Shown: positions 57,418-57,567 of the stretch, in pieces
How the letters are laid out: every line of letters begins with the position of its first letter
How positions within the stretch are numbered: the stretch's first letter is position 1
DNA from: Candidatus Parcubacteria bacterium
GTDB lineage: Bacteria > Patescibacteriota > Minisyncoccia > Minisyncoccales > JAGMDC01
NCBI GenBank assembly: GCA_023131895.1
Contig: JAGLYZ010000002.1
Coordinates: 43,364 to 107,363, forward strand
DNA length: 64,000 nt
Reading direction: 5' to 3'
Notes under the pieces: model-generated
Seen by the model: the letters and a program-made list of their open reading frames with translations, nothing else
What the model was told of the DNA's origin: nothing
Database searches by the model: none
Position numbers and translations under genes: made by a program

Positions 57418-57469
57418 AGTTATCCACAGTTTTGGGTAGTTATCCCATAGTTATCCACAATCATCCACT
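57418..57469 (-). promoter_or_regulatory. four helically phased (T)GTGGAT(AAC) boxes in the mraZ 5' UTR; candidate MraZ operator, identical in sequence to DnaA boxes
   Basis: ATCCAC/ATCCCA cores at 57422, 57442, 57453 and 57463, giving spacings of 20, 11 and 10 bp. Perfect TTATCCACA at 57420-28 and 57451-59. Confidence 0.6.
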
Positions 57470-57477
57470 ACACTTAC

Positions 57478-57506
57478 TTTATACTCCACTTTAACATTGA
57501 TGTCAA
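57478..57506 (-). promoter_or_regulatory. mraZ promoter TTGACA-17-TATAAA
   Basis: The -35 is the reverse complement of 57501-06 and the -10 the reverse complement of 57478-83. Confidence 0.55.
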
Positions 57507-57546
57507 ATACATTAAAATATCCTAAATCCCTCTTAAAACCATTAAC

Positions 57547-57567
57547 TTTTCCACAGATAATCCACAG
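57547..57567 (-). promoter_or_regulatory. two further CCACAG boxes upstream of the mraZ -35
   Basis: ttttccacag and ataatccacag, cores 11 bp apart (57551 and 57562). Confidence 0.45.

Follow-up and report, generated by a model that had tools for sequence, protein, structure and literature searches.

The window analysed here is a stretch of 64,000 nucleotides (nt) from a metagenome-assembled Minisyncoccales/Parcubacteria genome, and the element in question is its region 57418-57567, the upstream control region (promoter and 5' untranslated region, UTR) of the division gene mraZ. On the minus strand mraZ heads the run mraZ-rsmH-ftsL-ftsI, being followed by rsmH, a small ftsL-like open reading frame (ORF) and a gene for an ftsI-type penicillin-binding protein (transpeptidase). 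The control region holds a cluster of short repeats that can be read both as an operator for MraZ and as an array of boxes for the replication initiator DnaA. The features of the locus are as follows, where letters denote the boxes of the window and B1 to B4 their counterparts in related leaders.

56104-56967, minus strand: rsmH, matching MraW methylase
56986-57417, minus strand: mraZ coding sequence (Pfam MraZ, E 3.7e-37)
57418-57429, plus strand: box a (B4), AGTTATCCACAG with core TTATCCACA at 57420-28; on the minus strand CTGTGGATAACT-ATG, adjoining the mraZ ATG
57440-57448, plus strand: box b (B3), TTATCCCAT, the weak half of a double box with a 2-bp gap and the third putative MraZ repeat (ATGG/TGGG on the minus strand)
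57449-57460, plus strand: box c (B2), AGTTATCCACAA with perfect core TTATCCACA at 57451-59, the second putative MraZ repeat
57461-57469, plus strand: box d (B1), TCATCCACT, the first putative MraZ repeat (AGTGGATGA on the minus strand), its GTGG 10 bp from that of B2
57478-57506, minus strand: mraZ promoter, with -35 TTGACA at 57506-01, a 17-nt spacer and -10 TATAAA at 57483-78
57547-57566, plus strand: upstream double box, TTTTCCACA at 57547-55, a 2-bp gap (ga) and TAATCCACA at 57558-66, repeating at 11 bp and lying some 40 bp 5' of the -35
57581-57604, minus strand: intrinsic terminator of the gene preceding mraZ, the upstream limit of the control region

Read along the minus strand, the region runs from the terminator (57604-57581) through CTGTGGATTA-TC-TGTGGAAAA (57567-57547), about 40 bp, TTGACA, 17 nt and TATAAA to GTAGTGGATGATTGTGGATAACTATGGGATAACTACCCAAAACTGTGGATAACT-ATG. 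The promoter was read by eye and is absent from the promoter scan because the scan demands T as the last base of the -10 element; related species conserve the TTGAC, 43 of 63 having it 46-47 nt ahead of B2, and the transcription start is predicted just upstream of box d.

The core TTATCCACA occurs five times in the whole window against 0.53 copies expected, and at least five copies were found in 0 of 100 shuffles; the exact matches lie at 1960-68 and 31569-77 on the minus strand and at 53927-35, 57420-28 and 57451-59 on the plus strand. The longer 12-mer AGTTATCCACAG is present in four exact copies against 0.18 expected (1959-70, 31568-79, 53925-36 and 57418-29) and in a version with one mismatch, AGTTATCCACAA, at 57449-60; coding repeats aside, it is the sole complex 12-mer so repeated in the window. 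Against the DnaA consensus TTWTNCACA, the 150 bp upstream of mraZ hold two perfect copies of TTATCCACA, two boxes one mismatch away from it (TTTTCCACA and TAATCCACA) and two further boxes with two mismatches. The CCAC cores of boxes a, b, c and d are spaced by 20, 11 and 10 bp, and boxes b and c, like the upstream pair, stand head to tail with 2-bp gaps. The first-pass annotation of this DNA had given the same counts and coordinates for both motifs, and its description of six related boxes at mraZ, with core spacings of 10, 11 and 20 bp in the UTR, the last box adjoining the ATG and a pair 11 bp apart upstream, holds in every position but missed a seventh box, GTGGAG at 57489-84 on the minus strand, with which the promoter spacer ends immediately 5' of the -10 element.

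The simplest proposal of that annotation was that the phased repeats are the MraZ operator, and for boxes d, c and b this stands. They present GTGG at 57468-65, GTGG at 57458-55 and ATGG/TGGG at 57448-44, in 10-bp steps between the -10 element and the ATG, and an MraZ operator has been defined as at least three direct GTG(G/T)/TGGGN repeats with spacers of about 6 nt (PMC12957436), the B. subtilis site being GTGG[A/T]G-N4 three times over (bioRxiv 10.1101/2022.02.09.479790). The comparison of mraZ promoters in related genomes that the annotation had proposed, carried out on 80 mraZ loci of other Parcubacteria species whose MraZ proteins are 66-95% identical, found the B1-B2-B3-B4 leader layout in 63 of the 80. 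In this layout B1 is (A/G)GTGG, B2 follows 10 bp on as T-TGTGG-AWAA with an invariant TGTGG, B3 is (G/T)GGG-AWAAC, and B4 lies 31-32 bp past B2 as C-TG(T/G)GG-AWAAC-T, its TGTGG beginning 8-16 nt (mode 11) before the ATG in 33 of the 63 leaders. The operator AGTGGGAAATTGTGGGGCAAAGTGGGAATAAG of the E. coli mra promoter, Pmra, likewise between -10 and ATG, is identical to the consensus of the Parcubacteria clade at 27 of 32 positions. The window MraZ aligns without gaps to that of Mycoplasma genitalium (9qlr) and has both DXXXR motifs (IDEKKR and DGLGR); it keeps K13, R15 and R86, the residues Lys13, Arg15 and Arg86 that read the box (PMC12957436). Because of their position, the three GTGG repeats at 10 bp, the 27/32 identity and the intact contact residues, boxes d-c-b are, by every sequence criterion tested, an ordinary predicted MraZ operator.

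These same features bear on the opposite extreme, namely that the cluster is a regulatory or titrating site for DnaA alone, like the clusters of B. subtilis or datA of E. coli, with MraZ uninvolved. Such a reading can appeal to seven DnaA-like boxes in 150 bp, all in a single orientation, and to the option of reading d-c-b as DnaA boxes set head to tail with gaps of 1 and 2 bp, comparable to an array upstream of dnaA in the related locus L174. However, the 10-bp register of GTGG prevails in the leader, where the relatives have 105 adjacent box pairs downstream of the -35 at a spacing of 10 bp as against 5 at 11 bp, and B1 is no DnaA box in most relatives. Moreover, mraZ is present with its DNA-contact residues intact, and autoregulation by MraZ through repeats at the same place is conserved from E. 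coli to Mycoplasma. Control by DnaA alone is judged improbable.

The remaining boxes do not follow the grammar of an MraZ operator: the upstream pair, box a and the single copies elsewhere in the window are TGKGNAWAA units that either recur at 11 bp (2-bp gaps) or stand alone beside a -35 element, and to them the operator proposal of the first-pass annotation does not readily extend. About 25 related species share a pair of TG(T/G)GNAWWA units with a 2-bp gap (11-bp period) upstream of the -35, and there the spacing of adjacent boxes is 11 bp in 16 cases and 10 bp in 3, which sets them apart from the leader array (Fisher p = 1.6e-13). Conserved boxes furthermore tolerate any base, including A, C and T, at position 5 of the DnaA box: B4 reads TGTGA in L039, TGTGC in L032 and TGTGT in L071, and several similar variants occur in upstream pairs. 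The resulting GTGA and GTGC lie outside the GTG(G/T) of MraZ yet match the DnaA consensus exactly, and the W position varies between A and T alone in the relatives, as that consensus permits. In lineages with plain GTG(G/T)-N6 leader arrays, a TGTGGAWAAC box is retained apart from the array, on the upstream side of the promoter, and the DNA-binding loops of MraZ in these lineages are the same as in others.

The boxes also resemble known DnaA sites of E. coli in detail. The 12-mer AGTTATCCACAG is identical to box R4 of oriC including its flanks and matches R1 at 11 of 12 positions; in chromatin immunoprecipitation sequencing (ChIP-seq) of E. coli the form (a)gTTATCCACAg was found at the strongest in-vivo DnaA sites (oriC, datA, DARS and nrdD), and the purH site carries AGTTATCCACAA, the sequence of window box c (PMC11317965). 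In-vivo binding there needs head-to-tail pairs of boxes with a gap of 2 or 3 bp (PMC11317965), and the window shares with these double boxes the head-to-tail 9-mers with short gaps, the pairing of a strong with a degenerate box, and the flanks. Boxes b and c in particular are identical at 17 of 21 positions (TTATCCCATAGTTATCCACAA against TAATCCCATACTTTTCCACAG) to the double box of mioC, which is bound by DnaA (PMC11317965) and which is mentioned, second-hand, in PMC4446571 (citing Eraso 2014) as overlapping an MraZ site. Unlike the mioC site, that of the window lies within the mraZ leader itself and is conserved across a class of the candidate phyla radiation (CPR), whereas E. coli ChIP-seq places no DnaA at mraZ.

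A more direct comparison is offered by the dnaA regions of related Parcubacteria, of which six loci from three lineages were available, with DnaA proteins 75-100% identical to one another and none from the genome of the window. All six have the order jag-yidC-rnpA-(rpmH) followed by a divergent dnaA, and dnaN comes next after dnaA in all four loci that reach past it. Head-to-tail arrays of DnaA-box-like 9-mers with 2-bp gaps occur upstream of dnaA in six of six loci and in the dnaA-dnaN spacer in the four that cover it, for example TAATTCACA-ac-TTTTACCCA-gt-TTATTAACA, GAATCCACA-gt-TTTTACCCA-gc-TTTTACCCA and TGTGCTTAA-ac-AGTGGAAAA-gt-TCTGTAAAA; TTTTCCCCA-3 bp-TTATCCATA stands at the dnaA stop codon, and there is a single perfect TTATCCACA among the arrays. 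As in the window cluster, the 9-mers are co-oriented with an 11-bp period, number many in about 150 bp and include variants with C at position 7 (TTWTNCCCA). Domain IV of the relatives' DnaA aligns without gaps to that of E. coli (1J1V) and keeps R399, R407, Q408 and D433-H434-T435-T436. Given that this 11-bp grammar and the TGGGN variants occur beside dnaA, TGGGN is no longer counted against DnaA, and the argument that TGGGG variants exclude this protein was dropped, TTTTACCCA and TTTTCCCCA both being present in the dnaA-flanking arrays. As a separate observation, type IV secretion system (T4SS) genes have been described near dnaA in Paceibacterota (preprint 10.1101/2025.01.22.634366), and the TraG/VirB4-like T4SS ATPase near dnaA contains a LAGLIDADG-endonuclease intein in two Nealsonbacteria (L175 14868-18650 and L176 14442-18224), where it is 1260 amino acids (aa) long as against 595 aa in L174.

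The likeness to dnaA-flanking DNA raises the question of whether the cluster is itself a chromosomal replication origin, given its dense, co-oriented DnaA boxes about an A+T-rich stretch. This is unlikely for several reasons: GC skew is negative on both sides and the flanking genes all lie on the minus strand with no switch in orientation; no dnaA or dnaN was found in the window or in the 10 kb to its left; the relatives have a classical rpmH-dnaA-dnaN region with arrays of its own; and the A+T-rich DNA that separates the boxes is nothing other than the conserved promoter with its -35 and -10 elements. The window cluster differs from the dnaA-flanking arrays in lying away from dnaA, in lacking a skew switch and in overlapping both a promoter and a 10-bp MraZ array, and its boxes are nearer to consensus than those beside the relatives' dnaA. 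A structured RNA leader fares no better: RNAalifold found 0 conserved pairs in 38 leaders and Rfam had no match at the leader, its matches over the window being two tRNAs and nothing else. A riboswitch or RNA leader was accordingly rejected, a hairpin of a G-run and a C-run between B3 and B4 being present in only about half of the relatives. Origin and RNA leader together are regarded as very improbable.

Outside the mraZ region the 12-mer stands singly at three other promoters.

1959-1970, minus strand: within the final codons of murC, with TTGTAT (1951-46)-18-TATAAT (1927-22) 7 bp downstream
31568-31579, minus strand: 9 bp upstream of TTGACA (31558)-17-TATCCT of a GajB-like operon, downstream of tRNA-Gln
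53925-53936, plus strand: CTGTGGATAACT on the minus strand, 4 bp upstream of TTGACA (53920)-16-TATCAT of a small-ORF/Ca-ATPase operon

The first-pass annotation had placed these correctly in the last codons of murC and upstream of the Ca-ATPase beside tRNA-Glu, but its GHKL label for the large protein of the GajB-like operon finds no backing, the 785-aa product having no Pfam or PADLOC hit. Two of the three sites, that after murC and that before the small ORF and Ca-ATPase, are conserved across species. The murC-site promoter, which is not in the promoter scan output, stands at the head of a 44-aa membrane ORF and an ABC exporter, beyond which mraY, murL, murD and ftsW make up a second dcw block. 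An exact TTWTCCACA lies just past murC in 9 of 59 distinct metagenome murC loci (MurC 43-69% identical), with TTGAC 7-12 bp beyond the box in 6 of the 9, while two further loci have near matches fused to TTGAC and TGTGAAAAACT is the probable counterpart in L017. The promoter at 53925, a strong one downstream of tRNA-Glu, serves a 32-aa acidic ORF and Ca-ATPase and Na-Ca exchanger genes; box and promoter are conserved in four more species (L005-L008), W swapping between A and T, and in the Wildermuthbacteria relative L029 the box lies directly before the ATPase gene. Two of the single boxes lie downstream of tRNAs, and a tRNA-linked att site was considered; it was rejected because the box accompanies the downstream promoter where the tRNA is absent (L007 and L008).

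Several further observations belong to these promoters. In L006 (9160-9210) the small-ORF box is expanded to three tandem copies of CCTGTGGA with a 13-bp period, neither 10 nor 11 bp. In L029 one 30-bp module, CTGTGGATAACT(T/C)GGCTAAACCAAGG, stands ahead of both mraZ and the Ca-ATPase gene (4340-4390 and 30-65), and a TACAAT 6 nt before the ATPase ATG points to an mRNA that is leaderless or nearly so, the box overlapping the -35 position. Below the box-bearing promoter of the window, at 53722-53900 on the minus strand, a 5'-UTR hairpin, GAGAGAttt-ACAAG..CTTGT-ttTCTCTC, is conserved in L005-L008 and L046; it is followed by the tiny, very acidic ORF MTTEFLMQEETETEEGEAKEGGTEEKKEESEE and then, before the Ca-ATPase, by a strong terminator hairpin at 53676-53715, an arrangement that looks like a leader-peptide or attenuator device for the cation pump. 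The third promoter, at 31568, serves the operon 24599-31487 (minus strand), which encodes a 73-aa ORF, the 785-aa protein, a 192-aa protein, a full-length GajB-like UvrD helicase (PADLOC E 2.8e-49) and a 387-aa protein, and which looks defence-like while matching no known system. Its spacer and -10 element are filled by a 31-bp palindrome at 31522-31552 with two perfect 15-nt arms, ATACGATAAGGATAT-G-ATATCCTTATCGTAT. This is likely to be the operator of a local repressor, which is perhaps the product of the 73-aa ORF (31266-31487).

Beyond the window, TGTGGAWAAC outside mraZ leaders was found at 29 distinct sites in 1.40 Mb of fetched DNA, 16 of them in the 9.4% that lies outside long ORFs (p = 8e-10), against 0 of 12 for the control cores TGCGG and TGAGG, and the exact 12-mer occurs six times outside the mraZ leaders of the 80 loci, against zero for each of five composition-matched controls. 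The bases flanking the 9-mer favour A at -2 (55%) and G at both -1 and +9 (49% each), C being down to 1% at +9, as at E. coli sites.

It is conceivable that CCTGTGGAWAACT is recognised by some other protein, either a clade-specific transcription factor or RNA polymerase itself contacting an element by the -35, given that several unrelated promoters (53925 of the window, two in L172 and one in L020) have the box at 4-5 bp from their -35 and that its flanks are conserved past the 9-mer. However, the box can point either way, its distance varies from 2 to 12 bp, and it also lies within the 5' UTR and in arrays; DnaA sites of E. coli typically show identical flanks (PMC11317965); and no candidate protein was found. 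This explanation is held to be decidedly improbable.

A far more serious contender is that MraZ alone reads all the boxes, as an oligomer preferring a longer KGG-AWAAC, so that identity with the DnaA box is a by-product and the single sites form a cell-wall regulon of MraZ. Much of what weighs against a part for DnaA also speaks for this account. Every box variant retains G-N-G (TGKGN), which two MraZ arginines could read, and the E. coli MraZ repeats likewise have A-rich spacers; therefore MraZ alone could account for much of the pattern, and the argument that the AWAAC extension cannot come from MraZ is weakened. Judged by E. coli rules, the TGGGG variants (22% of B4 across species and 13 boxes of upstream pairs) make poor DnaA boxes. 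Of the four promoters with boxes, two stand at cell-wall gene blocks, a natural regulon for MraZ, namely the mraZ block and the murC/mraY/murD/ftsW block, and a cryo-electron microscopy structure has an MraZ octamer on one box (PMC12957436). Unlike the E. coli double boxes, moreover, the single sites of the window have no recognisable partner box nearby, and most isolated consensus boxes of E. coli are free of DnaA in vivo (PMC11317965). The dnaA-flanking boxes come from three other Parcubacteria lineages and are mostly one mismatch off, with few perfect copies of TTATCCACA, and since the compared species are kin, the counts overstate the number of independent events.

Nevertheless, an explanation by MraZ alone, though plausible, is on the unlikely side, for five reasons: the upstream pairs recur at 11 bp rather than 10 bp; GTGA and GTGC occur at conserved positions; the plain-array lineages, despite the same MraZ loops, still keep their upstream TGTGGAWAAC; an asymmetric single site of 12-13 bp exceeds the 4-bp contact of each MraZ subunit; and the same grammar is found around dnaA. 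Given the 11-bp and solitary boxes, the free position 5 and the match to the dnaA-flanking arrays, a single MraZ operator that happens to resemble DnaA boxes is too simple a description. The small MraZ regulon that the first-pass annotation had raised is no better supported than a regulon of DnaA, while its suggestion of cross-talk between DnaA and MraZ gains strength from these sequence comparisons.

The interpretation favoured here, with belief in it evenly divided, is a composite control region at mraZ, used by both MraZ and DnaA, together with a small DnaA-type regulon. Binding and the sign of regulation are inferred from the observed sequence, phasing, conservation and grammar of the sites and from the intact DNA-reading residues of the window MraZ and of the relatives' DnaA. 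An MraZ oligomer on the 10-bp array d-c-b, just past the transcription start, would shut off its own operon, as in E. coli. DnaA would bind the strong boxes c and a and the upstream pair, the weak neighbours being filled cooperatively, and binding of the kind expected at the dnaA-adjacent arrays would tie transcription of the division genes to the state of replication initiation. The same 12-mer beside the -35 of a few other promoters would then mark a small regulon of one shared protein, most likely DnaA. A further step, which is possible and offered tentatively, is that MraZ and DnaA compete or cooperate on the overlapping boxes, integrating the level of ATP-DnaA (a licence for replication) with that of MraZ (feedback from division), and that DnaA is one of the few global transcription factors of these cells with their minimal genomes, marking cell-wall, ion-transport and other promoters through the high-affinity 12-mer.

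Some other features of the window touch none of these subjects. An ORF at 3961-4893 (plus strand) encodes a TFIIB zinc ribbon and TFIIB cyclin repeats (Pfam E 1.2e-46 and 2.6e-17) among radical-SAM, LigB/Memo, AMMECR1 and EF-P genes; it is also present in the NCBI contig (L088), and in the same neighbourhood of L170 its slot is taken by a 447-aa protein. An archaeal-type transcription factor is unusual in a CPR genome and could be due to horizontal transfer or to a binning or assembly issue. The segment 39160-49014 (minus strand) resembles a mobile element, with RmuC, a T4SS coupling-type ATPase (DUF8128/DUF87/TrwB), a Fic protein and an IS200-type Y1 transposase; the ATPase has a 100% identical copy on a separate 330-kb contig, no dnaA was found at the homologous loci examined, and the strongest negative GC skew of the window, -0.49, falls at 40-42 kb. 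Another 12-mer, AGAGATTGAAAA, occurs six times within ORFs, always on the minus strand (10230, 41893, 45644, 46545, 47824 and 56546; four times as the 14-mer AAAGAGATTGAAAA), and is probably no signal but a consequence of the peptide K-E-I-E-K being common in an A+T-rich genome.

Both MraZ operators and DnaA boxes are textbook elements, and their overlap has been noted once, at mioC of E. coli; the novelty lies in an MraZ operator that consists of consensus DnaA boxes and has more of them on its flanks, in the conservation of this operator across a CPR class, and in the conserved promoters with single boxes. The mraZ control region resembles Pmra of E. coli in having its repeats between the -10 element and the start codon, and the repeats of E. 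coli, B. subtilis, Mycoplasma genitalium and Mycoplasma gallisepticum in having three direct GTGG at 10 bp with A-rich spacers. It differs from known MraZ operators in that perfect DnaA boxes make up two of its repeats, a fourth box follows 20 bp on and adjoins the ATG, and an extra 11-bp pair lies upstream of the -35. The 12-mer also stands singly at other promoters, whereas the triple repeat of B. subtilis is unique to Pmra (bioRxiv 10.1101/2022.02.09.479790).

For DnaA, box clusters outside oriC have precedents in the clusters of B. subtilis and in datA and DARS of E. coli, and DnaA acts as a cell-cycle transcription factor for division genes, for example ftsZ of Caulobacter crescentus. The logic proposed here, in which the replication initiator would regulate division genes, is the same as in Caulobacter, in another phylum and with other targets; to our knowledge no overlap with MraZ has been described there. 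The coupling of replication to division is debated even in model species, and we know of nothing reported on it for the CPR. If MraZ alone were to read these boxes, the result would still establish what the MraZ operator looks like in a whole class of uncultured bacteria and supply a first candidate regulon for it. If instead the composite control region is real, it would explain the reported presence of MraZ at the mioC DnaA box of E. coli. The arrangement of the boxes hints at a single switch common to replication and cell division. Regulators are very few in CPR bacteria, and an operator shared by the universal division repressor and the universal replication initiator would, if true, be a concrete point at which the two processes are coupled.

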